Shown: positions 2,857-64,000, counted from the first letter of the stretch. The stretch: 64,000 bases of DNA from Candidatus Poribacteria bacterium (GCA_022821725.1 JAJEDB010000115.1:17457-81456); one strand, 5' to 3'. Notes: generated by a model from the sequence alone, not told the origin. Numbers and translations are program-made.

Positions 2857-2899
2857 CAGACGGATTATGTTTATCTCTGAAAAACAAAGGAGATTCATG

Positions 2900-3148: not shown

Positions 3149-3157
3149 ATATTGACT

Positions 3158-3580: not shown

Positions 3581-3634
3581 TTGGTTCCTGCCACAAGGGA
3601 CTGTGGTATTAATCACCAAAGAGTCTAACAGACT

Positions 3635-24400: not shown

Positions 24401-24429
24401 TTGACAATATACGTCTTAAATATTAAGAT
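24401..24429 (+). promoter_or_regulatory. sigma70-type promoter, TTGACA-17-TAAGAT
   Basis: TTGACA 24401-24406, 17-nt spacer, TAAGAT 24424-24429, about 27 nt before ATG 24456. Confidence 0.55.
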
Positions 24430-24455
24430 AAGGGTTAAAAAGGAATAATTAAAAA

Positions 24456-24845
24456 ATGGCAGCTGAAAAAGGAACGTGGAGACGACACAGGGTCAAGGTA
24501 TTGACGGTTCTCTTACTCCTCACGGTATGCCTTGCCGTTTTGCAATGGTTTATCATCAAAGAGTTATTTGGTTTCGGCGCAGATATGGTGAAGGATGCGC
24601 TGATTCGGCAAGCCCCTGAAGGGGTAGATCGGTATGACGTTGAGGCGACGTTTAATCGGGTGAAAACAGCCGGGCAGCAGCTCCCGTTTAGTTTCCTTAC
24701 CGGGAAAATCAGTCTCCGTAAAATCAGAGCCGTTGGTAGATATGCAATAGAAGCGAACGCTGATGAATCTTGGGATGCCGATGAGATTAACACACTCCTA
24801 CGGATGATGGATGCCTCTGTCGGGGTTAAAGGAGGAACCCAGTAA
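24456..24845 (+). CDS. small membrane-anchored hypothetical protein
   Basis: 129 aa with one TM (VLTVLLLLTVCLAVLQWFII). Promoter and A-rich start context upstream. Confidence 0.5.
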   Translation: MAAEKGTWRRHRVKVLTVLLLLTVCLAVLQWFIIKELFGFGADMVKDALIRQAPEGVDRYDVEATFNRVKTAGQQLPFSFLTGKISLRKIRAVGRYAIEANADESWDADEINTLLRMMDASVGVKGGTQ

Positions 24846-32316: not shown

Positions 32317-35019
32317 ATGTATTACAGTAAATATATCAAACCCATCATCTTCGCACTCAGTATCTTTATAGTCATTACAATGGGTGCGTTTACGAGCGTT
32401 ATAGCGGATGAACATTCCAACACGGCGGAAGAAGCGGAGGAAACAGCGGAGACCGCTGACGAGGCTGAAGCGTCTGAAGAAACATCGCAAGCAGCAGCAC
32501 CGGTGAGGCTTGAGAGCCTCGTTGTTGTGGGTAGCCGTGCGCAACCGCGTTCCGTCTTGGATTCGCCAGTACCGGTCGATATTGTGTCAAACGAATCCTT
32601 TGAAAAGCAGGGGGGCGCGGATCTACCCGATCTGCTGAGAGCTTTGGTGCCCTCTTATAATGTCAATACGCAACCGATTAGCGATGCGTCAACAGTCGTC
32701 CGTCCAGCGAATTTACGGGGACTTGCCCCAGACCATACGCTGGTACTGGTTAACGGTAAACGGCGACACCGTGCCGCAGTGATTCACTGGCTCGGGAACG
32801 GTTTGTCTGATGGCTCACAGGGACCTGACCTGGCGCCTATTCCCGCAATTGCCCTGCAACAGGTAGAGGTCCTCCGTGATGGTGCCTCCGCACAATATGG
32901 GTCGGACGCTATTGCAGGTGTGATGAATTTTCGATTGAAAGACAGTCACGAAGGCGGTTCGTTTGAATTTAAACCCGGTATCTACCAATACGGTGACGGT
33001 CGACAGTTTGCTGTCGCTGGTAACATCGGTTTAGGGAATCCAGACGCCTGGAGTAACCTCAGTTTTGAATACGGTGGTGCAGATCCGACCATCCGGTCTG
33101 TCCAACGTAATGATGCTATAGCCTTGATTAATGCAGGCAATTTCAGTGTGAAAGACCCGGCGCAAATTTGGGGACAGCCGATTATAGAGAATGATGTCAA
33201 ATTGTTTGCCAACTACGGTGCCACCCTCACGGATACTATCGACTTCTATGGACATGCCAACTACGCTCGTAAGCGAGTCGAAGGTGGATTCTATTTCCGT
33301 AACCCAAACACCCGGGGCGGTGTGTTTAGCAGCACCGGTGGAGATACGTTGCTCGTCGGGGATTTGCGGGGTTTGACAGACGAAATGGCAGCTTGGGAAA
33401 CCCGAAAGCAGGCAGCAGAGGCTGCTGGACAGGAGTTTACCGAACTCTCACCGCACGAGGCTGACGATATTCCGATAAACAACCACGTTCCGGATCCCGC
33501 ACGGTTACAAGCCGTCAAGAGTGACCCGAATCTATTCACATTCCAGGAAATGTTCCCAGGCGGATTCACACCCAGATTTGGCGCATTCATGTGGGATAGT
33601 TCCGTCGTCGTTGGCGTTAAAGGCACTGCCCTGGAAGATGAATTAGGCAAACCCTTAACGTGGGATCTGAGCGGCTCTTTTGGACGGAATCATGCCGATT
33701 TCTTTATCTTCAACACTGTCAATGCTTCCCTCGGACCCGATACACCCACGTATTTTGATCCGGGCGACTATATCCAGACGGATTATAACCTCAACTTTGA
33801 TGTAACCTATCCGTTGAGCGACATGGTGTTCCTCGCTTCTGGTTTGGAATATCGCAACGAGGGATTTGAAATCATAGAGGGTGAACGCGAGTCGCATCAG
33901 ATCGGACCTCTTGCTGTTCAAGGCTTCACTGCAGCCTCTAACGGATTTTCAGGGTTCAGCCCGGTTGCCGCAGGCACGTGGCACCGTTCCAACGTCGCGA
34001 TGTATCTGGAAAGTGAAATCAGACCGATTGAGCCGCTCCTGATCGCGCTTGCTGTGCGTGGTGAACAATTTGAGATTTTCGGTAGCACCCTGAACTATAA
34101 AGCCGCCGCAAACTATAAGGTTACGGAAACAATGCGGTTGCGGGGAAGTTATAGTACCGGGTTCCGCGCACCGACACCGGGACAGCAAAATACGTTCAAC
34201 ATTACCACTGAATACGATTTTGTGAAGGGGGATCTCGTCAATAACGGAACAATTCCTTCCACTAACGCTGCTGTGGGTGTTGTGACAGGCAAGGAAGATA
34301 ACTCGCTTGACCCGGAAACATCAAATAACTTCACAGGTGGATTCACCGTCGATATTTTGGGCGTAAATTTCACGGTGGACTTTTTTGATATCCGGCTGAA
34401 AAACCGGTTATCTGTGTCACAAGACTTTACATTGACCGATTCGCAGAAGACGCAGCTCATCGCTGAAGGTGTAACGAGTGCGGCGAATCTGGAGCAATTC
34501 CGGTTCTTTATCAATGACTTCTCTACGACAACCAATGGTATTGACTTTGTTATTACAGCACCAATACCCAACGGAAACCTCATCGCCGTGTATAACTTTA
34601 CGAATACCACGGTTACCGAGTTCAATCCTCAGACACTGGACGATCATCGAATCAGGGAACTGGAAGAGAATTTACCTAAACACCGCGCCAGTCTGACTGC
34701 CTTTCAATCCATAACGGATGTGTGGGGTGTGCTCGGGCGTGCCAGTTATTTCAGCGGTTGGTTCGATTCTGAAGATTACTTACAGAATCCAGATGTGTCA
34801 GGCACTGGAGAATACTCTGGAAAGGTGATTGTCGACCTGGAAACCACTTACACTGTGGGATCGGGATTGGCACTCACGCTCGGTGGAAGAAATATCCTGA
34901 ATACCTATCCCGATGAAAATCCGAATGGTGCTGATTCTGTTGGTAACAAATATGGGCAGTTCAGTCCCTTCGGTTTTGATGGGGCATACTGGTATGCGAA
35001 AGTCGGATATAGTTTCTAA
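32317..35019 (+). CDS. TonB-dependent outer-membrane receptor, copy 1
   Basis: Signal peptide, acidic linker, TonB-box/plug LESLVVVGSRA...VEVLRGASAQYGSDAIAGV-type block, 900 aa, C-terminal ...KVGYSF. Confidence 0.9.
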   Translation: MYYSKYIKPIIFALSIFIVITMGAFTSVIADEHSNTAEEAEETAETADEAEASEETSQAAAPVRLESLVVVGSRAQPRSVLDSPVPVDIVSNESFEKQGGADLPDLLRALVPSYNVNTQPISDASTVVRPANLRGLAPDHTLVLVNGKRRHRAAVIHWLGNGLSDGSQGPDLAPIPAIALQQVEVLRDGASAQYGSDAIAGVMNFRLKDSHEGGSFEFKPGIYQYGDGRQFAVAGNIGLGNPDAWSNLSFEYGGADPTIRSVQRNDAIALINAGNFSVKDPAQIWGQPIIENDVKLFANYGATLTDTIDFYGHANYARKRVEGGFYFRNPNTRGGVFSSTGGDTLLVGDLRGLTDEMAAWETRKQAAEAAGQEFTELSPHEADDIPINNHVPDPARLQAVKSDPNLFTFQEMFPGGFTPRFGAFMWDSSVVVGVKGTALEDELGKPLTWDLSGSFGRNHADFFIFNTVNASLGPDTPTYFDPGDYIQTDYNLNFDVTYPLSDMVFLASGLEYRNEGFEIIEGERESHQIGPLAVQGFTAASNGFSGFSPVAAGTWHRSNVAMYLESEIRPIEPLLIALAVRGEQFEIFGSTLNYKAAANYKVTETMRLRGSYSTGFRAPTPGQQNTFNITTEYDFVKGDLVNNGTIPSTNAAVGVVTGKEDNSLDPETSNNFTGGFTVDILGVNFTVDFFDIRLKNRLSVSQDFTLTDSQKTQLIAEGVTSAANLEQFRFFINDFSTTTNGIDFVITAPIPNGNLIAVYNFTNTTVTEFNPQTLDDHRIRELEENLPKHRASLTAFQSITDVWGVLGRASYFSGWFDSEDYLQNPDVSGTGEYSGKVIVDLETTYTVGSGLALTLGGRNILNTYPDENPNGADSVGNKYGQFSPFGFDGAYWYAKVGYSF

Positions 35020-35245: not shown

Positions 35246-37936
35246 ATGAAAGGCGGACTTGATTGTAAAAAGGTGATGCTTTGGACGCATGTTGTTTTGG
35301 CGGTTTTTATGGGGTTGGTGTCTGTAGCAATAGCAGAAGAGACTGAGGTAGAATCAAGCGAAACAACATCTGAGCAAGAAGTCATAACGTTGGAAGAGAT
35401 GGTTGTGGTTGGGACGCGTGCCAAACCGCGTTCGATCCTTGAATCTGCGGTACCCATTGATGTTTTACCGAGTGCAGACTTCGTAAAACAGGGAGGCGCA
35501 GATCTCCCTGACCTGTTAAGAAACTTAGTACCCTCCTATAACGTTAATGCACAACCGATCGCTGATGCCGCGACTGTTGTCCGTCCAGCGAATCTACGCG
35601 GATTGGCACCAGATCACACGTTACTGCTCGTTAACGGCAAACGTCGCCACCGGGCTTCTGTGATTGCATGGCTCGGAAATGGGGTGTCTGATGGGGCACA
35701 GGGTGCTGATCTTTCTCCGATTCCGTCTATTGCCCTGAAACAGGTGGAGGTGCTGCGAGACGGAGCGTCGGCGCAATACGGTTCTGATGCGATCGCAGGG
35801 GTCATGAACCTCCAGCTCAAAGATAGTTATAAAGGTGGGACTTTTGAAATTAAACCCGGTATTTTCCAAGCCGGTGATGGTCTTTCATACGCTCTCGCTG
35901 GGAATATCGGTGTGGGACGAGAGGATCTCTGGACGAACCTGAGTGTAGAATACGGCGGCATGAATGAGACAGATCGGTCTATACAGCGAGATGATGCCGC
36001 CGCGCTTATGAGTGCTGGAAACACAGATGTCGCTGATCCCGCCCAACCGTGGGGACACCCTATTATTAGAGATGACATCAAGCTTTTCGCTAACTACGGG
36101 GCAGGCATTACCGATGACATTAAGTTCTACGGTCATGCGAACTACGCGCAGAAAGAAGTTGAAGGCGGTTTCTACTTCCGAAATCCTAATACCCGCGGTG
36201 CCGTGTTTAGTAACGATGGCGGTAAGACACTACTTGTCGGGAATTTGCGAGGTTTGACAGCGGAAATGACGGCGTGGGAGGCACGAAGGCAGGAAGCGGC
36301 GGCTGCCGGGCAAGCGTTTACCGAACTGTCTCCTCACGATGCTGACGATATCCCAATAACGAACAACGTTCCAGAGGCTGCTGCCTTGCAACAGGTTTTT
36401 TCTGACCCGAATCTATTCACATTCCAAGAGCTCTTTCCCGGTGGGTTTACGCCCCGCTTCGGTGCTGATACCCAAGATGCTTCGCTCCTTGTTGGATTGA
36501 AGGGAACGGTCGCGGCGGACGTGGGATGGGATTTAAGTGCTTCTTATGGACGACACGCCTCCGATTTCTTTATCAGAAATACGGTCAATGCCTCGCTCGG
36601 ACCGGACACACCGACTGAATTTGATCCAGGCAATTATATCCAAGCGGATACGAACATTAACCTTGATTTGACGTATCCATTGCACGATAGGGTGTTCCTC
36701 GCTTCTGGTTTGGAATATCGAACAGAGACCTTTGAAATTGTGCAAGGACAGATTGAGTCTTGGGAAATCGGTCCCTTGGCAAGCCAAGGATTTAGTTCAG
36801 GTTCCAATGGGTTCCCCGGTTTTAGTGATATTGCCGAAGGGAATTGGACCCGGTCTAACTTCGCTGGCTATTTGGAGAGTGAGTTGAGACCCGTCGATTT
36901 TTGGACGATTAATGCCGCTGTCCGGGGTGAGTATTTCGATGATTTTGGGAGCACAATCAACTATAAAATCGCAACGAGCTATGGTATTACCGACACGCTC
37001 AAGTCATTGCTTCCGGTGGGTCCTGGTGTTGACCTAAGGGCGCGCGGTAGTTACAGCACCGGTTTCAGGGCACCCACACCGGGACAGCAAAACGCCTTTA
37101 ACGTCACAACGGAATTCGGTGAGAACAATACGCTCGTCAATAAGGGAACGATTCCTTCCACACATGGTGCCGCACGTTTGGTCGGTGGTAAGACACTCGC
37201 GCCGGAAAAGTCAAAGAATTTTACCGTTGGAACGGTGGTCAGTCACGCGATTGTGAGTATCACTGTCGACTACTTCAATATCACGGTGGAGGATCGGTTA
37301 GCACCTTCAAAGGATTTCAACCGTGGGACAGATATTACTGAGGCACACATTCAGCAACTTGTGGCTGAAGGTATCACGAGCGCAGGGAACTTGCAAGAAT
37401 TCCGGTTCTTTACCAATGAATTTGAAACGAGCACGCAAGGGATTGATGTAATTCTCACGGCACCAGTATTGGAGGGTGCGCTGAGTCTCGCTTACAACTA
37501 TACCGGAACGGAGGTAACCAAACACAATCCCGATATTCTCAACGAGGTCCGTATCAACCTCATACAGGAAGGAATTCCGCGCCATCGCGGAAATGTGACA
37601 TTAACCCAAGCCATCGGCAACAGTCTGGGGGTATTGGGCAGAGTCAATTACTACGGTCCTTGGTACGAGAACGCTGTCGGTGCACAAACCTATGCCAGCG
37701 CGTTTCTGGTGGACCTTGAAGTGAGTTACGCAGTCGTTGAGGACTTGGGCATTACAATTGGTGTGAATAATGTTCTCAATGTAGAACCGGATAATATTAC
37801 TTCGGCAGAGGGACCTCCAGTGCCTTTCGATATTAAAGAATTTCCAGCCAGAATCGTTGGTAGACCCTTCGGTGAGTATAGTCCTTATGGGTTTGGCGGT
37901 GCGTTCTATTATACCAAAATTGGTTACAGTTTTTAG
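35246..37936 (+). CDS. TonB-dependent outer-membrane receptor, copy 2 (tandem paralog)
   Basis: Collinear with copy 1. LEEMVVVGTRA plug, 896 aa, C-terminal ...KIGYSF. Confidence 0.9.
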   Translation: MKGGLDCKKVMLWTHVVLAVFMGLVSVAIAEETEVESSETTSEQEVITLEEMVVVGTRAKPRSILESAVPIDVLPSADFVKQGGADLPDLLRNLVPSYNVNAQPIADAATVVRPANLRGLAPDHTLLLVNGKRRHRASVIAWLGNGVSDGAQGADLSPIPSIALKQVEVLRDGASAQYGSDAIAGVMNLQLKDSYKGGTFEIKPGIFQAGDGLSYALAGNIGVGREDLWTNLSVEYGGMNETDRSIQRDDAAALMSAGNTDVADPAQPWGHPIIRDDIKLFANYGAGITDDIKFYGHANYAQKEVEGGFYFRNPNTRGAVFSNDGGKTLLVGNLRGLTAEMTAWEARRQEAAAAGQAFTELSPHDADDIPITNNVPEAAALQQVFSDPNLFTFQELFPGGFTPRFGADTQDASLLVGLKGTVAADVGWDLSASYGRHASDFFIRNTVNASLGPDTPTEFDPGNYIQADTNINLDLTYPLHDRVFLASGLEYRTETFEIVQGQIESWEIGPLASQGFSSGSNGFPGFSDIAEGNWTRSNFAGYLESELRPVDFWTINAAVRGEYFDDFGSTINYKIATSYGITDTLKSLLPVGPGVDLRARGSYSTGFRAPTPGQQNAFNVTTEFGENNTLVNKGTIPSTHGAARLVGGKTLAPEKSKNFTVGTVVSHAIVSITVDYFNITVEDRLAPSKDFNRGTDITEAHIQQLVAEGITSAGNLQEFRFFTNEFETSTQGIDVILTAPVLEGALSLAYNYTGTEVTKHNPDILNEVRINLIQEGIPRHRGNVTLTQAIGNSLGVLGRVNYYGPWYENAVGAQTYASAFLVDLEVSYAVVEDLGITIGVNNVLNVEPDNITSAEGPPVPFDIKEFPARIVGRPFGEYSPYGFGGAFYYTKIGYSF

Positions 37937-39818: not shown

Positions 39819-39847
39819 TTGATATACATATTGGAATGTGGTATAAT
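39819..39847 (+). promoter_or_regulatory. sigma70-type promoter, TTGATA-17-TATAAT (extended -10)
   Basis: TTGATA 39819-39824, 17-nt spacer ending TGTGG, TATAAT 39842-39847. Implies a 5' UTR of about 160 nt for rpsF. Confidence 0.65.
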
Positions 39848-40525: not shown

Positions 40526-40996
40526 ATGGCAAGTTACAACAAGGTCATTCTGATGGGGAATCTTACCCGTGACCCTGAAGTGAAATTCCTTCCGAGCGGG
40601 ACGGCCATCGCGAATTTCGGATTGGCTATGAATGAAAGTTACACCGATCAACAGACGGGTGAACGGAAAGACGTTCCCTGTTTTGTTGATGTAGAAGCAT
40701 GGGGTAGGCAGGCGGAAATAGTGGGTGAATATTTCAGTAAGGGCAGACCGATTCTGATTGAAGGTTCCCTCAGATATGATTCCTGGGAAGCTGACGATGG
40801 CACGAAGCGGAACCGTCTTAAAGTTCGCCTGCAGCGGTTTCAGTTTGTCGGGAGACGTGAGGACAACGAGGCGGACGGCGGTTACGCCGATGCCCAACCC
40901 GCAGCTCCATCAGGGCAAACTGCAGCGTATCAGGACGCGCCCGCACCCACTGCGAGCGGTGCACCTTCTGCAACAGAGGACGACATTCCGTTTTAG
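40526..40996 (+). CDS. ssb: single-stranded DNA-binding protein
   Basis: MASYNKVILMGNLTRDPE OB-fold start, Gly/Pro/Gln-rich linker, C-terminal acidic tip DDIPF. Confidence 0.95.
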   Translation: MASYNKVILMGNLTRDPEVKFLPSGTAIANFGLAMNESYTDQQTGERKDVPCFVDVEAWGRQAEIVGEYFSKGRPILIEGSLRYDSWEADDGTKRNRLKVRLQRFQFVGRREDNEADGGYADAQPAAPSGQTAAYQDAPAPTASGAPSATEDDIPF

Positions 40997-41010
40997 CAAG
41001 AGTGATGTTC

Positions 41011-41044
41011 GGGGAGAACCACTGTCGTTCAGAGGTTCTCCCTC
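41011..41044 (+). terminator. hairpin after ssb (part of a heptamer-repeat module)
   Basis: GGGGAGAACCactgtcgttcagaGGTTCTCCCtC. No clear T-run, so terminator function is uncertain. Confidence 0.35.
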
Positions 41045-41047
41045 TTT

Positions 41048-41079
41048 AACTGACAACTGATAACTGATAACTGACAACC
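41048..41079 (+). repeat. tandem heptamer array (AACTGAY) x4.5
   Basis: aactgac aactgat aactgat aactgac aacc, ending 19 nt before the rpsR ATG. Confidence 0.85.
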
Positions 41080-41098
41080 ATAAAGGAACAAAATCAAT

Positions 41099-41299
41099 AT
41101 GGCATTCCGTCGGAGGCAGCGCTATCATAAGATAGAATCTTTCGATTACAAAGATGTGGATACGCTGCGAAAATTTATTAATGAACGTGGTAAGATTGTG
41201 AGTCGCCGGGTCACCGGACTATCGGCGAAGCAACAACGAATGGTAACACGGGCAGTCAAACGCGCCCGTAATATGGCACTATTGCCGTTTACGCGATAG
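41099..41299 (+). CDS. rpsR: 30S ribosomal protein S18
   Basis: [33 protein letters not shown]. Confidence 0.95.
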
Positions 41300-41380
41300 C
41301 GGTAGGGATGCAGACACGGACAATAGGTGTCCCTGTGAAGGATGGATTTTTTTTCAAAAATCTAAACCGAAAACTTTTCT

Positions 41381-41472
41381 ACCGTAGCCCGTAATGAAAT
41401 GGAGGGCGGATCTCAGGAACGCACGTAAAATATCCAAATTCACGTCGTTTCTCCGCAAGGTATAATTAAAAA
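41381..41472 (+). repeat. start-codon-abutting leader repeat (short version)
   Basis: accGTAGCCCgtaatgaaatggaGGGCgga...ttcacgtcgtttctCCGCAAGGTATAATTAAAAA followed by ATG. Shares its head and tail with 44150-44248 and 46645-46761. Confidence 0.7.
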
Positions 41473-41919
41473 ATGGAAGTCATTCTAAAGGAAAGTGTTG
41501 AAGGTCTCGGTCTACCGGGTGATGTATTGAACGTCGCAGATGGCTACGCACGTAACTACCTGCTTCCGATGCAGTTAGCCGTGCACGCAACCGAACGGAA
41601 CCGTAGACACTTAGAGCATGAGAAACGGGTCATTGATCATCAAGAGACAAAAAATAAGGAACGGGCACGTGAAATCGCCGCACAGATGGCGGGTGTTACA
41701 TGCACACTCAGTAGGCGTGCTGGTGAAAACGATCGTCTCTTCGGATCAGTTACCTCTATGGATATCGCAGAAAATTTGCGAACGCAGGGGTTCGATTTGG
41801 AACGGCGGTTCTTTGAACTCGCTGAGCCTATTCGTGAACTCGGCGTGTTCATGGTACCGGTCAAATTGTATACAGAAGTCGTCGTTGAACTCCGCGTTGT
41901 TGTCGAACGCGAAGATTAA
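41473..41919 (+). CDS. rplI: 50S ribosomal protein L9
   Basis: MEVILKESVEGLGLPGDVLNVADGYARNYLLP. Confidence 0.95.
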   Translation: MEVILKESVEGLGLPGDVLNVADGYARNYLLPMQLAVHATERNRRHLEHEKRVIDHQETKNKERAREIAAQMAGVTCTLSRRAGENDRLFGSVTSMDIAENLRTQGFDLERRFFELAEPIRELGVFMVPVKLYTEVVVELRVVVERED

Positions 41920-41921
41920 TT

Positions 41922-43253
41922 ATGCAGGCACAACTGGTTGATTCTCTCTCTGACAAGGAAGCTGAACAAGCGATTCTGGGCGCAATGATGACCGAAAAGT
42001 CGGTGATTCCGCCAGTAATCACCAAGCTCGGTCAGACTGCTGATGTGTTTCTCACTGTAGATCATCAGCTTATCTATTCAGCGATCCTTGCGGTGTATGA
42101 CCGCGTTAGCAAGGCAGATCCCCTGCTTGTTGCTGATGAACTGAAGAAAGGAGACCAGTTGAACCGGGCGGGCGGAACGGAATACCTATACGAACTACAA
42201 GCGCCTATCGTGGAGACCGAGAGTACGGAGTTCTACGCAGATATCCTGTATGAAAAAGCAACGCGCCGTCGGCTCATTCGAGCAACCGCTCAGATTCGTG
42301 AGATGGCATACGACGAAGGTGTAGCGATTACGGAAGTATTGAATCAATCACAGGAAGCCGTCTTTGATCTGAGTCAGTCAGATACCCAACGCGGGTTTGT
42401 CGCTATTCATTCATTACTCACAGAGAGTCTTAACGCCGTTGAACGTTTGTATCACAAAAAGAGTAGATTTTTAGGCGTGCCGACCGGTTTTATGGATTTT
42501 GATCATCTGACGTCAGGGCTGCAGCCCGGTAATCTTATCATCATTGCGGCGCGACCGAGCATGGGAAAAACAACTTTGGTGCTGAACATCGCCCAAAACG
42601 TTGCCCTTGAACAAAAGCGTCCAGTCGCCGTTTTTAGTCTTGAGATGCCTTCCCAAGATATCGCGATGCGAATGTTAGCCACCGAATCCCGGATTGATTT
42701 TGGGCGGCTCCGAACCGGTAACTTCAGCGAAGATCAGTGGAGACCCTTGACCGATGGCGCAAGTCGATTGGCGAAAGCACCGATCCTCATTAACGATAAT
42801 CGCGGGCTTACCGTTCAAAGTCTGCGCGCCGAGGGACGCCGTTTAAAAGGCGAACATAGCGATCTCGCACTCATTATCGTGGATTACCTGCAACTCTTGA
42901 GAGGGACGGGCAGGTATCACGCCCGTGAACAGGAGATCTCTGAAATTTCACGCGCCTTGAAAATCCTTGCGTGGGAACTGAATGTGCCAATTATCGCGTG
43001 TTCGCAATTGAGTCGTGAGATTGAACGGCGCCCTGATAAACGTCCGCAACTTTCAGATTTACGGGAGTCCGGGGCAATCGAGCAAGATGCCGACCTCGTT
43101 GCCTTTTTACACCGCGATGATTATTACGAAGATGAAGATGTCGGGGACAGGGTTGAAGCCTATATCATGATAAAAAAACAGCGGAACGGACCAACCGGGA
43201 CGGTTATTCTTTATTTTACCAAAAACGAAATGCGCTTTGAAAATTCCAATTAA
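41922..43253 (+). CDS. dnaB: replicative DNA helicase
   Basis: AEQAILGAMM N-terminal domain, Walker A AARPSMGKTT, Walker B IIVDYLQL, SQLSR. Confidence 0.95.
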   Translation: MQAQLVDSLSDKEAEQAILGAMMTEKSVIPPVITKLGQTADVFLTVDHQLIYSAILAVYDRVSKADPLLVADELKKGDQLNRAGGTEYLYELQAPIVETESTEFYADILYEKATRRRLIRATAQIREMAYDEGVAITEVLNQSQEAVFDLSQSDTQRGFVAIHSLLTESLNAVERLYHKKSRFLGVPTGFMDFDHLTSGLQPGNLIIIAARPSMGKTTLVLNIAQNVALEQKRPVAVFSLEMPSQDIAMRMLATESRIDFGRLRTGNFSEDQWRPLTDGASRLAKAPILINDNRGLTVQSLRAEGRRLKGEHSDLALIIVDYLQLLRGTGRYHAREQEISEISRALKILAWELNVPIIACSQLSREIERRPDKRPQLSDLRESGAIEQDADLVAFLHRDDYYEDEDVGDRVEAYIMIKKQRNGPTGTVILYFTKNEMRFENSN

Positions 43254-43260
43254 ATAAAAA

Positions 43261-44085
43261 ATGGAGCAGCAGTCCACTTTACACGAAGCCAATGGTGGTT
43301 TCCCTGATTTGGTTAAGATTCGGTTGCACAAAGTGCTTGCCGAGATAGGACACGCCTTTACGCTCTTTTTTCAAACCCTAATCCAAATTTTCCGTCCTCC
43401 CTTTCAGTTTGATCTGTTAGTTAAGCAGTTGTTGTTAATCGGTTTCAATTCTTTGGCGGTCGTTATTGTCTCTGGGTTTTTCACGGGAATGGTATTGGGT
43501 GTCCAGGGATACATTCAGCTCAAACCTTATGCAGTGGAAGGTTCGGTCGCGAGGTTCGTCTGTGTCTCAGTCGTGAAGGAACTCGGCCCGATGATTACCG
43601 CCTTTGTGCTTGCGGGACGTATCGGCGCATCAATTACCGCTGAGCTTTCAACGATGAAGGTTACGGAGCAAATTGATGCCCTTGAAGTGATGGGCACAAA
43701 TCCTGTTAAGTATCTGGTCGTGCCGCGTTTTCTCGCCTGTTCTATAATGTTACCGACACTTACGATCTATTCGACATTTGCGGGCATCGGCGGGGGGTTT
43801 GTCGCTGTTGTTACGCTATTCGATGTAAATGGCTCCTTTTTTCTCTTGGAAGTGCAGAAGAATCTGTTTGTCGGAAGCGTTCTCATTAGTTTGATTAAAG
43901 CGACCTCTTTTGGAATGGCGATTGCTGCCGTGGGGTGCTACAAGGGTTTTAGTATCTCGACAGCAGGGGGCGCAGAGGGGGTCGGAATTGCGACAACTGG
44001 CTCTGCTGTAATCTCTCTTATTGCGATTCTCGTTTTAGATTTTGTCTTGAATCATGTACTCTTTAACATTTTGGGGTTGGTATAA
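43261..44085 (+). CDS. mlaE: MlaE-family ABC transporter permease
   Basis: VKELGPMITAFVLAGRIGASITAELSTMKVTEQIDALEVMG is the MlaE/Ttg2B signature. Confidence 0.85.
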   Translation: MEQQSTLHEANGGFPDLVKIRLHKVLAEIGHAFTLFFQTLIQIFRPPFQFDLLVKQLLLIGFNSLAVVIVSGFFTGMVLGVQGYIQLKPYAVEGSVARFVCVSVVKELGPMITAFVLAGRIGASITAELSTMKVTEQIDALEVMGTNPVKYLVVPRFLACSIMLPTLTIYSTFAGIGGGFVAVVTLFDVNGSFFLLEVQKNLFVGSVLISLIKATSFGMAIAAVGCYKGFSISTAGGAEGVGIATTGSAVISLIAILVLDFVLNHVLFNILGLV

Positions 44086-44248
44086 TTAGCCGTCAGGCAT
44101 CAGCCGTCGGTAAAGAGGTTTTCACCTCATAAAGGTTTCCTCAGTGTATAAGTAAAAACCGTAGCCTGCAACAACGGTGCCGGCGGACATGAGCAACGCC
44201 CGTCAAAGTCCAAACGCACGCTGTGTCTCCGCAAGGTAAAATTAAAAT
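44086..44248 (+). repeat. mosaic leader repeat, full-length copy L1
   Basis: Fills the whole mlaE-stop to mlaF-ATG gap and aligns almost base for base with 46593-46761. Modules: degenerate RTCAGYY heptamers, AAAGAG box, GTAG hairpin (44161-44184), CCGCAAGGTAAAATTAAAAT, then ATG. Confidence 0.85.
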
Positions 44249-45028
44249 ATGATTTCGATTCGGAATGTTACAAAAAATTTTGGAGGCAAAAACGTTTTAA
44301 ATGGGTTAAGCCTCGAAATTCCACGCGGTGAGACGCTCGTGATTATGGGACAAAGTGGGTGTGGTAAGAGTGTACTCCTCAAAATTATTACCGGGTTGAT
44401 GTCTGCGGATTCCGGTGAAATTTGGTTCGATGGAACGGAAATATCAAGTCTGAACGGAAAAAAGATAAATAACCTCCGCCGAAAAATTGGAATGCTATTC
44501 CAGTCGGCTGCCCTCTTTGATTCGATGACCGTCGCGGAGAACGTCGCTTTTATGCTCAATCAGCATACAGATCTTGACAAGCGAGAGATGCGTAAGGTGG
44601 TTGACGAGAAGCTCAGCCTTGTTGATTTAGAGGGTGTCCAAGACTTGCGACCCGCTGAATTAAGTGGCGGTATGCGAAAACGGGTTGGACTCGCACGCGC
44701 CCTCGCATTTGATCCAGAGGTTATTCTCTACGACGAACCCACGACAGGGCTTGACCCGGTTACCTGTACCGAAATCAATCAACTTATTAAAGATCTCCAT
44801 GAGCGGTTACAAGTCACCTCCGTTGTGGTTACACATGATATGCACAGTGCCTTCAGTGTCGCAACCCGAATGGCGATGATTCATGAAGGCAAGCAGGTCG
44901 CTTATGGCAGACCCGATGAAATTATCAACATCGACGATCCCATTTTGCAACAGTTCATTCTATTTGGGGCACCAGATCAGATTCTCAACATGGAAAATCC
45001 CATTTTGAAAAAATATTTGGGGAGGTAG
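44249..45028 (+). CDS. mlaF: MlaF-family ABC transporter ATP-binding protein
   Basis: Walker A GQSGCGKS, signature LSGGMRKR, Walker B ILYDEPT. Confidence 0.9.
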   Translation: MISIRNVTKNFGGKNVLNGLSLEIPRGETLVIMGQSGCGKSVLLKIITGLMSADSGEIWFDGTEISSLNGKKINNLRRKIGMLFQSAALFDSMTVAENVAFMLNQHTDLDKREMRKVVDEKLSLVDLEGVQDLRPAELSGGMRKRVGLARALAFDPEVILYDEPTTGLDPVTCTEINQLIKDLHERLQVTSVVVTHDMHSAFSVATRMAMIHEGKQVAYGRPDEIINIDDPILQQFILFGAPDQILNMENPILKKYLGR

Positions 45029-45029
45029 T

Positions 45030-46592
45030 ATGAACTTTTGGACGGCTTCAGTAAAAGTCGGTGTAATGGTTCTTCTCGCAATCGTCTTGCTGACAATTCT
45101 TCTGACGAATGCTGAGAATTGGCCCTGGGCAACTGCTGGGGATGAACTGACCTTTCACTTTCGTTCTGTCAACGGGCTTTATGTCGGCGCAGGCGTTTAC
45201 TTATATGGGGTGCCAATCGGCAAGGTAACGGCTATCGAACTCCGTCCTGACACGGATAATGTGCGCATCAAAGCGAAAGTCAAAAACGCTTTTGAGTGGT
45301 TGCGGGAGGACTGTAGTGCCAGAATTTCCATGAATGGATTTGTCGGTGAAATTTATATCGCACTTGACAATGGACCGGTTGGGAACCCCGCATTAAAGCC
45401 AGCGAACTTGCCGATTGTTGGAAAAGACCCTGTCAATGCTTTGGATCTCCTTGAGCAGACAAGTGCTGGTATGACACAGGCTATTGAACTGACAACGGCT
45501 GCGAATGAAGTGCTACAGGCGAACCAAGAAGCGATTCAACTCGCCATTAAAGAGATTCGCGAGCTTGTCGCACTCACTGGAAAAACGATTGAGAAGTTAA
45601 GTCTTGACTCTGAGGAGACGGTAAAAACGCTAACACAACTCGCTTTAGAAAATGATAGGCGGTTTCAGGGAACCCTCGTAAAGGTGAATAACCTTGTAAC
45701 ACAGTTAGAAGGCGATTCCCTGATGGTGAGTAGTCAAATTAGTGACATCACGCGTGAACTCTTGAGACTTCTGAATCAGAATTCACCGAAGCTCAACACT
45801 ATTTTTACCGATATTCGCGCAACAACATCAGAATTTCGGCAGATAACACAGGATTTTCGATCAGATTTCGAGGCGTTAGCGACACAGGTTTCTGCCCTCG
45901 TTTCGCAAAGTAGGCGTGCTATTGAAACGGGAGAAGTCAATATCGCACCCATATTAGAAAATCTGAAGGCAACCACGGCTTCGGTCGCTACGTTGGAAGC
46001 GAGTGTCAATCGGTTTCTTACCACGCTTAACGAGGGGGAAGGGACCGTCGCCCAATTGCTGAACACACCGGAACCGCTTGAAGATGTCCGCCGAACCTTG
46101 CAAAATGTCGACGAAACGATGGATGCGGTAACGGAACTCTCTCAAAGAACTGAGAAGCAGTTGGAGCAATTTGATTTACCGCAGTTTGGCTGGGACTATG
46201 AACTCCGTTATCTGAGTCTTGAAGAGCGACTCCACAACGAGTTGGCATTTTTACTCTCTCAAGGATCTGAGGCGCACTACAGACTCGGGATCGGGGTGCG
46301 GGACGAGAAAATTCGGTTTGAACTTCAGTATGGGTATAATGTGACAGATTTTCTTCAGGCACGTGCTGGGTTTATGCATTCCAGAGTCGGCGCGGGGCTC
46401 GATGTGTGGTTATGGTCCCGACGTTTCGGCATCAGCGTTGAAGGTGTGGGGTTGACAAGCGGGGAGCCCGAGTTAAACGCGGAAATGGGATTTCGGTTCT
46501 TCCGATATGGACAATTCCTACTTGGTGTAGAGAATGTGACCCGTGAGCGGCGCTGGACAACAGGATTCCGCTTCTTTGACGGTGAATGGTAG
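45030..46592 (+). CDS. mlaD: long MlaD/MCE-domain protein with helical extension and C-terminal beta-barrel-like region
   Basis: N-terminal TM, MCE block (GLYVGAGVYLYGVPIGKV), about 250 aa of helical repeats. The last 130 aa or so have alternating hydrophobic strands and end FRFFDGEW. Confidence 0.75.
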   Translation: MNFWTASVKVGVMVLLAIVLLTILLTNAENWPWATAGDELTFHFRSVNGLYVGAGVYLYGVPIGKVTAIELRPDTDNVRIKAKVKNAFEWLREDCSARISMNGFVGEIYIALDNGPVGNPALKPANLPIVGKDPVNALDLLEQTSAGMTQAIELTTAANEVLQANQEAIQLAIKEIRELVALTGKTIEKLSLDSEETVKTLTQLALENDRRFQGTLVKVNNLVTQLEGDSLMVSSQISDITRELLRLLNQNSPKLNTIFTDIRATTSEFRQITQDFRSDFEALATQVSALVSQSRRAIETGEVNIAPILENLKATTASVATLEASVNRFLTTLNEGEGTVAQLLNTPEPLEDVRRTLQNVDETMDAVTELSQRTEKQLEQFDLPQFGWDYELRYLSLEERLHNELAFLLSQGSEAHYRLGIGVRDEKIRFELQYGYNVTDFLQARAGFMHSRVGAGLDVWLWSRRFGISVEGVGLTSGEPELNAEMGFRFFRYGQFLLGVENVTRERRWTTGFRFFDGEW

Positions 46593-46761
46593 TCAGCTGT
46601 CGGTAAAGAGATTTTCGCCTCATAAAGGTTTCCTCAAGGTAAAATTAGAAACCGTAGCCTGCAACAACGGAGCAGGCGGATATAGAGAACGCACTTCAAA
46701 GTCGAAACGCACGTTATGCCTCCGCAAGGTAAAATTAAAGACCGCAAGGTAAAATTAAAAA
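46593..46761 (+). repeat. mosaic leader repeat, full-length copy L2
   Basis: Fills the whole mlaD-stop to radA-ATG gap. GTAG hairpin GCCTGC/GCAGGC at 46654-46677. The start-proximal 20-nt box is tandemly duplicated (46722-46741 and 46742-46761). Confidence 0.85.
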
Positions 46762-48123
46762 ATGGCACGAGAGAGACGCAAATTTGTCTGTCAAGAATGT
46801 GGGTATACAACCCCAAAGACCCTGGGACGGTGTCCGAGTTGTCGGAGTTGGCAGAGTTTCGCCGAGGAAGTAGAAACCCTCACCACACTCTCGAAACATC
46901 GGGATATCGGACAAGTGTCGCGCGAACCCGAACCCATTTCGCAGGTTACAGCCAACGAAGTAGAGCGACATCTAACGGGCATGTTGGAGTTTGACAGAGT
47001 GCTGGGGGGCGGGATTGTGCCAGGCTCTGTGGTCCTTATCGGCGGCGATCCTGGGATAGGCAAATCTACGTTGTTACTACAAGCCGGTGATGCATTGAGT
47101 CGGAACTATGGCGATGTGCTTTATGTTTCCGGTGAAGAATCTGTGAGCCAGACGAAACTCCGGGCGACTCGGCTCGGCGTTGCCTCTGATACGCTTTATG
47201 TGCTGTGTGAAAACAATTTAGAGCAGATTGAAAAGTATATTGAGGCACGCGCCCCGAAGGTCGTCATTGTTGATTCTATACAGACGGTTTATCTATCGAG
47301 CATCCCATCTGCCCCTGGGAGTGTCACCCAGATTCGTGAGTGTGCAGGACATCTCCTAATTTGTGCGAAGAATCGGAATATCCCCGTATTTCTCGTTGGA
47401 CATGTGACAAAGGAAGGGGCACTCGCAGGACCTCGCGTTTTAGAGCACATGGTGGATACTGTCCTCTATTTTGAAGGGGAACAACACCAAATTTACCGTA
47501 TCCTTCGAGCAATCAAAAATCGGTTCGGTTCCACGAATGAGATCGGAATCTTTGAAATGCAAAGCGCAGGACTCGTGGATGTGATGAACCCGTCAGAACT
47601 CTTTTTAAGCAATAGGGAAGCAGAAGTTTCAGGATCCGTCGTGGTTTCAAGTATAGAAGGGACCCGTCCCCTACTCATGGAGGTGCAGGCACTCGTCGTG
47701 CCTACACATTACGGAAACCCACGCAATACAGCAGCTGGGGTGGATAGACATCGGATTGCTTTACTCATTGCGGTCCTCAATAAAAGGGTGGGGATTAACG
47801 TCGGGGATTCTGATGTTTTCGTTAATGTTACCGGTGGGTTGCGTATTGCTGAACCCGGAATAGACCTCGGTGTCATGATGGCAATATCCTCAAGTCATCG
47901 CGATCTCCCTGTGGATCGGAAGACTGTTGTGATCGGTGAGGTTGGGCTTGGGGGTGAAATTCGTCCTGTAACGCACGTGGAGAGACGTATCCGGGAAGCC
48001 GCGAAGTTAGGCTTTAGACGAGTGATTTTCCCTGAATATAATCGGAAAGGCTTGGAAATTGACGAGGATATTGAACTTGTGGGGGTTAGCGACGTATATG
48101 ACAGTCTGGGGGCTTTGCTGTAA
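46762..48123 (+). CDS. radA: DNA repair protein RadA
   Basis: Zinc finger CQECGYTTPKTLGRCPSC, Walker A GGDPGIGKST, KNRFG motif, Lon-like C-terminal domain. Confidence 0.95.
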   Translation: MARERRKFVCQECGYTTPKTLGRCPSCRSWQSFAEEVETLTTLSKHRDIGQVSREPEPISQVTANEVERHLTGMLEFDRVLGGGIVPGSVVLIGGDPGIGKSTLLLQAGDALSRNYGDVLYVSGEESVSQTKLRATRLGVASDTLYVLCENNLEQIEKYIEARAPKVVIVDSIQTVYLSSIPSAPGSVTQIRECAGHLLICAKNRNIPVFLVGHVTKEGALAGPRVLEHMVDTVLYFEGEQHQIYRILRAIKNRFGSTNEIGIFEMQSAGLVDVMNPSELFLSNREAEVSGSVVVSSIEGTRPLLMEVQALVVPTHYGNPRNTAAGVDRHRIALLIAVLNKRVGINVGDSDVFVNVTGGLRIAEPGIDLGVMMAISSSHRDLPVDRKTVVIGEVGLGGEIRPVTHVERRIREAAKLGFRRVIFPEYNRKGLEIDEDIELVGVSDVYDSLGALL

Positions 48124-53345: not shown

Positions 53346-53418
53346 GTTATCAGTTAAAGAGGGTTGGGTTCAATCAGACCCTCGCTTAACTGATAACTGA
53401 CAACTGATGACTGACAAC
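53346..53418 (+). repeat. inverted heptamer-module pair plus AACTGAY array
   Basis: GTTATCAGTTAAagAGGGT (53346-53364) pairs with ACCCTcgcTTAACTGATAAC (53378-53397). The array aactgat aactgac aactgat gactgac aact ends 8 nt before the dprA ATG. Confidence 0.85.
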
Positions 53419-53426
53419 TATTAAAA

Positions 53427-54629
53427 ATGCTGTCTAACGAGACAATCAGTCTAATTCATTTAAATCTAATTCAAGGTGTAGGTCTCAAAACCGTTCAACG
53501 CTTACGTGACGTTTTTGGTAGCACAGAGCGAGCCCTTCGGGCAGCACCGGGCGAAATCAGAAAAATAGCTCAGCTGTCGCCAGCAGTCCGTGACCTCTTA
53601 ATTCACAAGCCTGTTTTGTATCCAATAGAACGTGAGCTTGAATTGATACAGACATACGGTTGTCAGGTTGTAACACTCTATGATCCCGCATATCCACCCC
53701 ACTTAAAAGAGATTGACACACCCCCATTTGTGTTGTATGTAAGGGGGGAACTGGTTCCGGAAGACGCCATAAGCGTCTCTGTCGTCGGTTCCCGAAACGC
53801 GAAGGATTACGGGCGAAAGGTGAGTTACCGCTTGAGTTACCAGATCGCGCAGCGCGGTTTAACAGTGGTGAGCGGTTTCGCGAAGGGTATTGATACCGCA
53901 GCCCATCGCGGCGCACTTGAAGCCGGCGGCAGGACAATCGCAGTGATGGGAAATGGATTAAGTCTTATCTATCCTGCAGCGAACAGGGACCTCGCTGAGA
54001 AAATTGAAACATCTGGGGCGTTAGTTTCCGAATTCCCGATGGCAGCCCGACCAAAGCCGAGAAACTTCCCACGTCGGAACCGTATCATTAGCGGTTTGAC
54101 GCTTGGAACTGTTATCGTAGAAGCGTCAAATCGCAGTGGGGCATTGATTACCGCCCGTCTCGCGGCTGAGCAGAACAGAGAGGTGTTCGCTGTCCCAGGT
54201 GAGATTTTTTCTGAACTTTCAGCGGGTACCCATCGGTTAATTAATGACGGTGCGAAACTCATCAACACTGTGGACGATCTGCTCAACGAGCTGCCGCCAC
54301 GCGTATTAAGTCAAATTCAGTCCCAGGCATCACCATCACCGGTGCCGGATATGGTGGCAGCACCTACACACGCGTCCGCTGCTGAGCCGAGCGATACGGG
54401 ATCAGTCCTCCCGGAACCTACTCCTGAAACACCGCCACCGCCACCCGATTTAACGCCAGATGAGAAAACGATTTTTCAGGCTATCGAAGTGCCGTCATCA
54501 CATATTGATACCATCGTTCGGACGACCCAACTCCCGATCAGTCAGGTGTCCAGTGTGCTTCTAATGCTGGAGCTTAAAGGTATTGTTCAACAGTTACCAG
54601 GGAAGCAATTCACTAAGTCTAATCAATAA
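53427..54629 (+). CDS. dprA: DNA-processing protein DprA
   Basis: VVGSRNAKDYGRKV, VVSGFAKGIDTAAHRGAL, Pro-rich linker, C-terminal winged-helix-like domain. Confidence 0.9.
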   Translation: MLSNETISLIHLNLIQGVGLKTVQRLRDVFGSTERALRAAPGEIRKIAQLSPAVRDLLIHKPVLYPIERELELIQTYGCQVVTLYDPAYPPHLKEIDTPPFVLYVRGELVPEDAISVSVVGSRNAKDYGRKVSYRLSYQIAQRGLTVVSGFAKGIDTAAHRGALEAGGRTIAVMGNGLSLIYPAANRDLAEKIETSGALVSEFPMAARPKPRNFPRRNRIISGLTLGTVIVEASNRSGALITARLAAEQNREVFAVPGEIFSELSAGTHRLINDGAKLINTVDDLLNELPPRVLSQIQSQASPSPVPDMVAAPTHASAAEPSDTGSVLPEPTPETPPPPPDLTPDEKTIFQAIEVPSSHIDTIVRTTQLPISQVSSVLLMLELKGIVQQLPGKQFTKSNQ

Positions 54630-55965: not shown

Positions 55966-55984
55966 TCCGCCACAAGACGTAAGC

Positions 55985-56063
55985 CCGTAATGGAGGGCGG
56001 TTCTACGTGAAAAGCCATCAACTTACGAATCACCTGACCGAACCGCAAGGAAAAATTAAAATA
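55985..56063 (+). repeat. leader-repeat relative embedded in the tsaC 5' end
   Basis: ccgtaatggagggcggttct...accgaaCCGCAAGGAAAAATTAAAATA. The position that is ATG in the other copies is ATA (56061-56063), in frame with tsaC. Confidence 0.6.
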
Positions 56064-56651
56064 GCCGTCCAATGCCTAAAGGCAGGCGGTATTGTCGCTA
56101 TCCCGACCGACACCGTCTATGGGTTAGGTGCCGACCCGTTTAATCCGAGTGCCGTCCAGAAACTCTATACAGTCAAAGGGCGACCGGATGGGAATCCGAT
56201 TCCGCTCGTTCTCAGTTCCGTTTCGGATATCCACCGCTTCTCTCGAAACCTACCCGATTTCTTCTTCCACCTCACAGATCGGTTTTGGCCCGGCGGTTTG
56301 ACGATCGTGATTGAAAGCAAAGGGCTGCTGCCCGTGCTAACGGCTGGAGGGGATACTGTCGGGGTCCGAATCCCGAACAACCCGCTGCTTTTGAAAATCC
56401 TTCAAGCGTTTGGCGGACCGATGGCAATAACAAGCGCGAATCTCTCTGGAGAACCGCCAGCCACCGCTGTCGAAGAAATTGGTAAAGAACTCGGCTCACG
56501 AATTGATATGATTGTTGATGGCGGGAAGACACCGGGTCCCATCCCTTCTACAGTTTACGACATTTCCGTCTCGCCGCCACTCGTTCGACGACCCGGCGTA
56601 ATTTCAGAAGAAACACTCGCCAAGGAGTTCGCGTGCTACAACAAGCGTTAA
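56007..56651 (+). CDS. tsaC: L-threonylcarbamoyladenylate synthase (YrdC/TsaC domain)
   Basis: GGIVAIPTDTVYGLGADP, KGRPDGNPIPLV, ITSANLSGEP. Start uncertain: GTG 56007, or a non-canonical start near 56055-56063. Confidence 0.85.
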   Translation: MKSHQLTNHLTEPQGKIKIAVQCLKAGGIVAIPTDTVYGLGADPFNPSAVQKLYTVKGRPDGNPIPLVLSSVSDIHRFSRNLPDFFFHLTDRFWPGGLTIVIESKGLLPVLTAGGDTVGVRIPNNPLLLKILQAFGGPMAITSANLSGEPPATAVEEIGKELGSRIDMIVDGGKTPGPIPSTVYDISVSPPLVRRPGVISEETLAKEFACYNKR

Positions 56652-63939: not shown

Positions 63940-63960
63940 AACTGATAACTGATAACTACT
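63940..63960 (+). repeat. tandem heptamer array (AACTGAT x2 plus a degenerate unit)
   Basis: aactgat aactgat aactact, ending 5 nt before an ATG. Confidence 0.7.
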
Positions 63961-63965
63961 AAACG

Positions 63966-64000
63966 ATGAGAGAAATATACCAAAAAATTCCAGAACTAAT
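63966..64000 (+). CDS. start of an unidentified gene (runs off the window)
   Basis: ATG 63966 reads MREIYQKIPEL. Supported only by its position after a heptamer array, as for rpsR and dprA. Confidence 0.25.
   Translation, partial: MREIYQKIPEL

Follow-up and report, generated by a model that had tools for sequence, protein, structure and literature searches.

Two spacers between genes in a 64,000-nucleotide stretch of DNA from Candidatus Poribacteria bacterium (GCA_022821725.1 JAJEDB010000115.1:17457-81456; the whole stretch is called the window below, and positions are counted from its first letter) raise a simple question. They stand in front of different genes, mlaF and radA, and are almost the same sequence; what are they, and what might they do at the start codons on which they end? 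The original prediction, made from this stretch alone, had described them as two copies of a mosaic repeat and proposed a mobile or recombining 5' cassette that delivers a promoter, a ribosome-loading site, or both. By sequence comparison they are members of an apparently undescribed repeat family common in sponge-symbiont Poribacteria, and its description at the family level, as a Poribacteria-specific, modular and directional intergenic repeat, is near certain. As to function, we favour, with somewhat less than even confidence, a directional, recombining intergenic cassette that supplies a gene start lacking a Shine–Dalgarno (SD) sequence, with the hexamer TAWAAT close to its end as a −10 promoter element.

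The look-alike spacers and the family around them

The first spacer, L1 (44086-44248, + strand), occupies the whole interval between the stop codon (TAA, 44083-44085) of an open reading frame (ORF) for an MlaE-like permease and the ATG (44249) of an ABC ATPase (MlaF-like). The second, L2 (46593-46761, + strand), likewise runs from the stop codon (TAG, 46590-46592) of an MlaD-domain ORF to the ATG of radA at 46762. The boundaries, read from the sequence and the ORF list, agree with the claim that each spacer spans the entire gap from stop to ATG, and a repeat search of the window bears out their near identity, aligning 44100-44246 with 46593-46739 at 86% over 147 nt. Three sub-patterns of the pair occurred far more often than in shuffled sequence, and only at these places (expected 0-0.01).

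The prediction of two copies held for the pair itself but not for the window, in which a core of about 90 nt is present four times. Searched with nhmmer, and with a covariance model (R1) built on the 92-nt core, the 64 kb gave exactly four cores, all on the + strand and each directly upstream of a + strand gene (rplI, mlaF, radA and tsaC). The cores of L1 (44155-44246; R1 84.9 bits, E 4e-18) and L2 (46648-46739; 95.3 bits) are joined by L3, between rpsR (S18) and rplI (L9; 41378-41470; 84.6 bits), and by a degenerate copy, L4, after tsaD and before or extending into the Sua5/TsaC gene (55974-56060; 57.6 bits; box CCGCAAGGAAAAATTAAA). L1 to L4 denote window copies throughout, and three-digit labels denote other loci fetched for comparison. 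Protein families were checked by Pfam for 20 window proteins, about a third of the window ORFs, and S18, L9, DnaB, MlaE, ABC_tran, MlaD, RadA, TsaD and Sua5/TsaC were confirmed in the stretch. In the region 55974-56075, the Sua5/TsaC gene has no ATG, and its sole in-frame canonical start is a GTG at 56007, inside L4; either about 18 N-terminal codons are repeat-derived or the start is non-canonical, the Pfam domain beginning at residue 23. Apart from the repeats, the window contains two pairs of paralogous genes in tandem, one of ORFs of ~900 aa (32317-35019 and 35246-37936, about 71-78% identical in DNA) and one of ORFs of ~285 aa (275-1126 and 1113-1982, 81-85% identical), and a 606-aa ORF (10912-12732) with internal repeats at a period of ~126 nt, probably a repeat protein of the beta-propeller type.

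Two alignments define the core: a MAFFT alignment of 61 distinct compact copies (A2) and a second of 113 copies retrieved with R1. In A2 it reads, 5' to 3', an A-rich lead-in with CCGTAG, a hairpin, GGAT(A/T)T, a spacer of about 45 nt, and a terminal box of 18-20 nt, CCGCAAGG-TAWAAT-TAAA(AA). The tag at A2 columns 7-10 is GTAG in the majority of copies, with AG invariant and GT prevalent but variable, and the arms lie at columns 10-15 and 26-31, giving a 6-bp stem. In the 61 copies 88.5% of the cells were paired and five of the six pairs changed on both sides (CG<->UA<->AU); none of 500 shuffles reached the observed score, and slid controls paired at 35-54%. The 113-copy alignment behaved in the same way (86.3% paired, two-sided changes at 6/6 pairs, 0/500 shuffles, slid controls 31-46%). 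T.G pairs, which occur in 28-35 copies, are valid on the sense strand only and therefore point to a role as RNA or single strand. The loop measures 9-10 nt, sometimes with insertions of 25-60 nt, and the hairpin rarely travels by itself: a hairpin-only covariance model (R2) gave 74 matches in 536 kb, all but about five weak ones being full R1 cores.

Beyond the hairpin there is little sign of structure. Folding the spacers of the 61 copies against dinucleotide shuffles gave a mean z of −0.24, not significant, and a second stem between hairpin and box that had been proposed by eye (AGGAAC...GTTCCT / CGG..GG...CC..CCG) was dropped on this result. The entire L1 and L2 spacers also fold like shuffled sequence (z −0.7 and −0.5), and the terminal box is unpaired in the minimum-free-energy folds of both. 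The sole strongly conserved stretch of the spacer in A2 is AAC(G/C)CAC, some 30-36 nt upstream of the start of the gene. Within the box, CC-GCAA-GG could form a mini-hairpin with a GNRA tetraloop. In every terminal box, as at 44229-44251 in L1, the box start CCGCAAGGT with its A-run coincides with a universally conserved segment of 16S rRNA helix 27, GGCCGCAAGGTTAAAACTCAAATG (confirmed as E. coli 16S; 15/22 identical to the box); since an 8-mer would match somewhere in 16S with a chance of ~5%, we regard this likeness as a curiosity.

The modules named in the original prediction (a heptamer run, a GGTAAAGAG module, a GTAG-headed hairpin and a start-proximal box) are all real, and in L1 and L2 a 5' module precedes the core. 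In L1 it opens with the heptamers GCCGTCA GGCATCA GCCGTCG (44089-44110), continues as the AAAGAG module GTCGGTAAAGAGGTTTTCACCTCATAAAGGTTTCCTCA (44106-44143), and meets the core at a degenerate internal box, GTGTATAAGTAAAAA (44144-44158), recognized by inspection. L2 has about 1.5 of the GSCRTCR heptamer units to the three of L1, an AAAGAG module at 46599-46636, which with that of L1 makes the only two pattern matches in the window (0 expected), and a counterpart of the internal box, TTCCTCAAGGTAAAATTAGAA (46630-46650), at the junction of its two modules. The GTAG-tagged hairpins, both also matched by R2, have arms GCCTGC / GCCGGC with one mismatch and a 9-nt loop in L1 (44161-44184), and arms GCCTGC / GCAGGC with six perfect pairs in L2 (46654-46677). 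L1 ends in one terminal box, CCGCAAGGTAAAATTAAA (44229-44246); in L2 the box is doubled in tandem (46722-46739 and 46742-46759), the degenerate internal one being the third.

Across the family the mosaic takes three forms: insertions of 25-60 nt (ACGCAGAAACACCCAAGCAAAAACAC, in either orientation) within the hairpin loop or behind it, a 5' module composed as in L1 and L2 of a heptamer run and a GGTWAAGAG...CTCTTAAG hairpin, and box-only remnants. ACGCAGAAACACCCAAGCAAAAACAC and its reverse complement GTTTTTGCTTGGGTGTTTCT make up a small second repeat, nested and sometimes reiterated in or just after the loop (for example L001 7359-7474, L082 ~560-860, L104 ~2900-2990 and L008 1735-1847). Heptamer runs similar to those of L1 and L2 precede GGTWAAGAG modules at other Poribacteria loci. 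In the window, heptamers (TAACTGA/CAACTGA)n also stand in tandem immediately before three genes, rpsR and dprA among them (41047-41087, 53387-53427 and 63946-63986), and at many Poribacteria loci, turned round (RTCAGYY), they make up the 5' end of GGTWAAGAG modules (L1 44089-44110; L095 ~2270-2310). These runs resemble the STRR heptamer repeats of cyanobacteria.

We then scanned one genome per species, 185,579 species in all, for the exact 18-mer CCGCAAGGTAWAATTAAA that ends the element. It occurred in at least 111 stretches, almost all from metagenome-assembled genomes (MAGs) of Candidatus Poribacteria. Among 80 of these that were listed, 77 have titles that read Candidatus or uncultured Poribacteria, two are 'uncultured bacterium' MAGs, and one is a MAG of the enterobacterial Scandinavium sp. 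(L005), whose 32.8 bits with R1 are at the level of a box without a core; among the matches listed, several complete chromosomes give at least eight loci each. Viral contigs yielded one weak box-only match. R1 found 113 copies in 536 kb and 98 in 406 kb of fetched loci (~210 in 0.94 Mb), and this is a dispersed family, not a local pair. The window density of four per 64 kb would amount, purely by extrapolation, to a few hundred copies per 5-6-Mb genome. The statement that no named family matches also held: Rfam gave no match at the gathering score in the whole window and nothing relevant at E up to 10 within 40900-47000, and a literature search returned no relevant paper on Poribacteria repeats, RAYT, miniature inverted-repeat transposable elements (MITEs) or leaderless expression.

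The terminal box and the gene starts that follow it

The relation of the box to start codons was tabulated, as the original prediction had suggested. A long ORF starts 1-5 nt after the exact box in 50/140 cases (36%), against 4.5% of 20,000 random positions, so that TAWAAT stands 5-9 nt before the start of a long ORF at 50 of the 140 exact boxes; these figures rest on crude ORF calls and on a biased sample, as two thirds of the copies, on which the conservation statistics also depend, were fetched through an exact match to the box. The mode is sharp: 34 of the 50 starts lie at exactly +2, which places 6 nt between TAWAAT and the A of ATG, as is true of L1 (TAAAAT 44237-44242, ATG 44249), L2 (TAAAAT in the second tandem box, ATG 46762) and L3 (box 41453-41470, TATAAT 41461-41466, ATG 41473). 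No long-ORF start lies within 80 nt of 52/140 exact boxes, in part a consequence of tandem arrays. Scored by the gene 200 nt downstream, 135 copies are co-oriented with it and 35 opposed (79% of the 170 assignable copies), and only seven, on the same crude calls, lie between convergent genes. The relation to gene starts is thus strong but not universal. The ATGs of L9, the ABC ATPase and RadA are true N-termini, the Pfam domains beginning at residues 1-17, and none of rplI, mlaF and radA has an SD sequence at normal spacing.

In the 113-copy alignment the T at −7 of the box is invariant and the A at −11 is conserved in at least 90%, while −12 and −10 are looser; this order of conservation is the hierarchy expected of a −10 hexamer. 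Some boxes are followed by a canonical SD sequence and an ATG 11-20 nt further on (L044, L070, L072, L068 and L057), which is how a promoter giving a short leader would look. The idea that GG generally serves as an 'extended −10' in these genomes was also considered and rejected, the enrichment of GG before TATAAT being an unconvincing ~2-fold.

Initiation without an SD sequence looks common in the source organism. Roughly 60% of the window genes with confident starts have no recognizable SD sequence, and many have an A-rich tract before the ATG, for example mlaE, cysS (cATAATTAAAAATATG), ispF and the gene at 23244. The window also contains textbook sigma-70 promoters, TTGACA-17-TAAGAT at 24401-24429 and TTGATA-17-TATAAT with a TG at 39819-39847, which implies that Poribacteria use canonical −35/−10 promoters as well.

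Turnover between relatives and the readings of the element

Comparison of the same junctions in relatives, ordered by MlaF identity, indicates that the element turns over, because they differ in its presence, in its variant and in the number of its units. At mlaE-mlaF, the locus at ~92% identity (L022, OZ243935.1) carries the element without the 58-nt AAAGAG module and with a degraded box. The two loci at 95% (L112 and L113) keep it at all three junctions, although at rpsR-rplI with a different hairpin and loop variant and a degraded box. Those at 88% (L114) and 85% (L116) have an unrelated 91-nt filler between mlaE and mlaF, and a relative at 58% has the classical ATGA stop/start overlap, in keeping with the prediction that this junction is normally tight. 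The filler (L114 1996-2086, L116 2566-2656) holds a small GTAG hairpin in reverse orientation (GTAGGAGCATCTCC, minus strand), which may belong to another repeat family. At mlaD-radA the element is present in the window, in L112/L113 and in L022, there as two tandem cores with four boxes; L114 has only 31 nt and no element. The extreme of amplification is an array of seven nearly identical tandem cores with a 142-nt period upstream of one gene in L092 (~2650-3600, minus strand), of which the last box alone abuts the ATG.

A box-like sequence without hairpin or spacer, AAGGAATAATTAAAAAATG (24440-24458, + strand), lies downstream of TTGACA-17-TAAGAT (24401-24429) at the start of the window gene at 24456, and comparison with the orthologue in L044 (OZ246979.1) suggests that it is an empty site: there, two tandem cores and a new SD sequence lie between the same promoter and the ATG. 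The window reads AAGGAA followed by TAATTAAAAAATG, and L044 reads AAGAAG, an insert running from CCAAACAGTAG to CCGCAAGGTA, and then TAATTA. Two such empty/filled comparisons showed no clean target duplication; one of the sites had AAG(G/A)A(A/G)...AAGGTA microhomology and nothing more. The ends of the element are unrelated to each other in both alignments (5' AAACCGTAGCC, 3' AAGGTAWAATTAAA), and the repeat search of the window gave no inverted repeat of 40 nt or longer. The 20 window proteins scanned included no transposase, and a crude search of the loci with back-translated RAYT patterns, NPV(R/K)AG and YIxxNP, gave 0 and 5 matches, at the level of chance. Gain and loss, replacement of variants and tandem amplification are, as far as these comparisons go, the behaviour of a mobile or recombining element, and that part of the original prediction fits them.

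We believe that these observations are best accommodated as follows. The element spreads and is rearranged through duplication or recombination; these events often take place at the box, of which extra copies are common. The box would serve as a portable gene-start signal without SD sequence, as a promoter, a ribosome entry site, or both. TAWAAT would be a −10 element 6 nt before the ATG, so that transcription begins at or next to the start codon and yields a leaderless or very short-leader mRNA; we give this promoter step about even odds. The unpaired, A/U-rich stretch of the box might also let ribosomes start on read-through transcripts. Insertion beside or inside an operon (rpsR-rplI, mlaE-mlaF, mlaD-radA) would then leave the downstream gene unsilenced and may uncouple it. 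Of the claim that the element delivers a promoter or a ribosome-loading site, the strong relation to start codons stands; the promoter is proposed from geometry only, TAWAAT lying 6 nt before ATG, and an A/U-rich ribosome entry site fits about as well. A −10 for a leaderless mRNA and an A/U-rich initiation region cannot be separated by sequence alone.

Several observations weigh against a cassette whose box is a promoter. Apart from the sampling bias already described, about 20% of the copies face no gene, and the T at −12 is often missing from diverged copies. There is no recognizable TTGACA-type −35 at 16-18 nt in the family, a simple −35 scan flagging nothing but L3 (TTCACG-16-TATAAT) and, in a shifted register, L4, unlike the canonical sigma-70 promoters of the same window. 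Outside the family, HTANAAT-N6-ATG is in no excess in 111 loci (20, vs 18 for N3 and 18 for N9), so leaderless expression is not visibly a general habit of these genomes. The best-conserved part of the box, CCGCAAGG, is left unexplained by a promoter. The spacing AAGG-N12-ATG is found without the element, at rpsR (41083-41101) and at the site 24440-24458, and is kept in the L112 rplI copy despite its degraded hexamer (AAGGAAAAAATAAAAAATG); recurring without the element and outlasting the hexamer, it favours a role in ribosome entry. The site at 24440-24458, moreover, lies downstream of the canonical promoter at 24401-24429, within its 5' untranslated region.

Some of these facts also recommend the nearest alternative, in which the family is as described and the box is a translation-initiation region and nothing else, combining a weak, distant SD sequence (AAGG 12 nt before the ATG) with an unpaired, A/U-rich landing pad. 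The element would be transcribed together with the gene before it or from a promoter upstream, and the GTAG hairpin would act in the intercistronic RNA, for example by stabilizing the 3' end of the preceding cistron, a part that intercistronic REPs play in E. coli. Copies within the conserved operons rpsR-rplI and mlaE-mlaF suit it, as do the A-rich spacers of the element-free AAGG-N12-ATG starts (rpsR and 24456), the many window genes that have no clear SD sequence and are A-rich at −1 to −6, and the AAGG-equivalent spacings of up to 13 nt at window genes that do have one; so do the unpaired box, the T.G pairs of the hairpin and the want of a general leaderless signature. It leaves unexplained the invariant T at −7, the perfect TATAAT and TAAAAT hexamers, the boxes with a strong SD sequence of their own (L044, L070, L072) and the conserved CCGC, and a 4-nt SD sequence at 12 nt is weak; on balance we think it possible but doubtful. 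A selfish repeat with no role in expression is unlikely. It would integrate or recombine just 5' of native A/T-rich starts (TAATTAAAAA-ATG) and be harmless by carrying a copy of that sequence, its GTAG hairpin serving perhaps as the handle of a Y1 (RAYT/IS200-type) transposase. The empty and filled sites at 24456 and in L044 speak for it, with native box-like starts at 24456, cysS (50550) and mlaE (43261), which have no element, the mlaE 3' end, which reads GGTATAATTAG where L1 begins and is conserved in the element-free L114, the roughly 20% of copies in a non-productive orientation, and the GTAG tag with covarying stem that is a hallmark of REPs (PMC3733652). Yet the transposase scan of the 20 window proteins was negative and the crude RAYT search unconvincing, terminal inverted repeats and clear target duplications were not seen, the hairpin, unlike a REP, almost never occurs without spacer and box, and the target site is deduced from one locus; 79% co-orientation and the sharp peak at +2 suggest selection for function. 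The −10/leaderless, ribosome-entry and integration-site readings are not mutually exclusive.

Two further explanations carry very little weight. A structured cis-regulatory RNA common to the downstream genes (riboswitch, ribosomal-protein leader or attenuator) could be imagined from a conserved sequence directly 5' of genes with one covarying hairpin and a possible CC-GCAA-GG tetraloop mini-stem. It is disfavoured, as most improbable, by the empty Rfam search even at E up to 10, the ordinary folds of L1, L2 and the spacer, the unrelated downstream functions (L9, ABC ATPase, RadA, TsaC and many others), and the tandem arrays and antisense copies, which do not fit. A purely local duplication of a spacer in the mla-radA region, with no wider family, is refuted as the sole explanation by the ~210 copies in 0.94 Mb and dozens of Poribacteria genomes, and by two further window copies 3 and 9 kb away. 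L1 and L2 do share one variant of the 5' AAAGAG module, different at other loci, so some local duplication or conversion seems to have occurred, and their special similarity does look like such an event nested within the wider family.

The promoter-bearing cassette that we favour has a bolder form. The family could be a phylum-wide, self-propagating 'leaderless promoter cassette' that lands 5' of gene starts, even in ancient operons, and makes the downstream gene its own leaderless unit, with CCGCAAGG and the AAC(G/C)CAC near −35 read by a dedicated sigma factor or activator, so that the repeats would constitute a regulon. We consider this unlikely as a whole.

Meaning, and comparison with known systems

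Interspersed bacterial repeats (REP, BIME, Correia, BOX) usually lie after genes or at variable distance from them. About one in three copies of the Poribacteria family is flush with a start codon, and the family takes the place of the entire SD region at core housekeeping genes. Were the box a −10 element, the family would be a mobile source of leaderless genes and a means of splitting operons in an uncultivated symbiont phylum; were it a ribosome-entry site, it would be a portable signal for SD-independent initiation. Either way it opens gene expression in Poribacteria, for which there is no genetics, to concrete tests, and it provides a marker for the annotation of start codons and a fast-evolving type of locus for strain typing of sponge symbionts.

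The BOX elements of Streptococcus pneumoniae are also modular intergenic repeats (boxA-boxB(n)-boxC) with a variable number of modules, and can influence neighbouring genes. They belong to a different phylum and we know of no sequence relation between the two, nor of a fixed relation of BOX to start codons.

There is a structural likeness to the GTAG super-family of REPs, defined as short palindromes whose stem is 5-13 bp long and which carry GTAG, or a variant close to it, unpaired at one end (PMC3733652). Our hairpin has this GTAG tag beside a short stem and conforms to the definition. In both, moreover, the stem is GC-rich, and there are sub-families in which it changes in a complementary manner and contains G.T pairs; both are extragenic, occur in many copies, combine with other motifs into mosaics and now and then form tandem clusters (PMC3733652; PMC2817692). 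In REPs, however, the dispersed unit is the 20-40-bp palindrome, whereas here the hairpin is fused in one direction to a 45-nt spacer and a start-proximal box, and the loop is long, at 9-10 nt, sometimes with 25-60-nt insertions. REPs mostly form inverted head-to-head or tail-to-tail dimers (REPINs), head-to-tail pairs being rare; our units are mostly single or head-to-tail (L022, L044, L023, L092, L105), and the only inverted neighbours are whole units in divergent intergenic regions, such as L038 6285-6398 (minus strand) and 6406-6488 (+ strand). REPs are found chiefly behind ORFs, where the neighbouring genes run in one direction or converge, whereas 135 of 170 assignable copies here lie upstream of genes and point at them; and a cognate RAYT flanked by repeats, as REPs have, did not turn up in the crude motif search of the loci.

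A different likeness is to the leaderless genes of Deinococcus, in which a −10 motif about 6-7 bp before the ORF has been shown experimentally (PMC12340547; PMC4007540). The Deinococcus-Thermus motif is a TANNNT-type hexamer 6-7 bp before the start, with no SD sequence and no obvious −35, and the same geometry is present in all three intact window copies, each with 6 nt. There, the motif is genome-wide and its promoters are unique; here, the hexamer ends a repeated cassette with invariant flanks (CCGCAAGG and TTAAA) and is in no excess outside the family. We take the element to resemble leaderless −10 motifs in geometry only.

In what it may do, the element is like the Correia repeat-enclosed elements of Neisseria, whose ends can give rise to promoters that govern neighbouring genes (PMC2649163). 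Both are interspersed repeats of ~100-150 bp whose presence differs between related genomes, and both can be co-transcribed. Terminal inverted repeats, duplication of a TA target and sites for IHF and RNase III are features of Correia elements; ours is asymmetric and, lacking terminal inverted repeats, is not of the MITE or Correia type, and just 6 nt separate its putative −10 from the ATG, which would leave no leader. The element is thus not a classical REP, MITE or Rfam family, although it may work as Correia elements do, with promoters at its end. We would place it with the interspersed intergenic repeats that carry expression signals, a kind already known.

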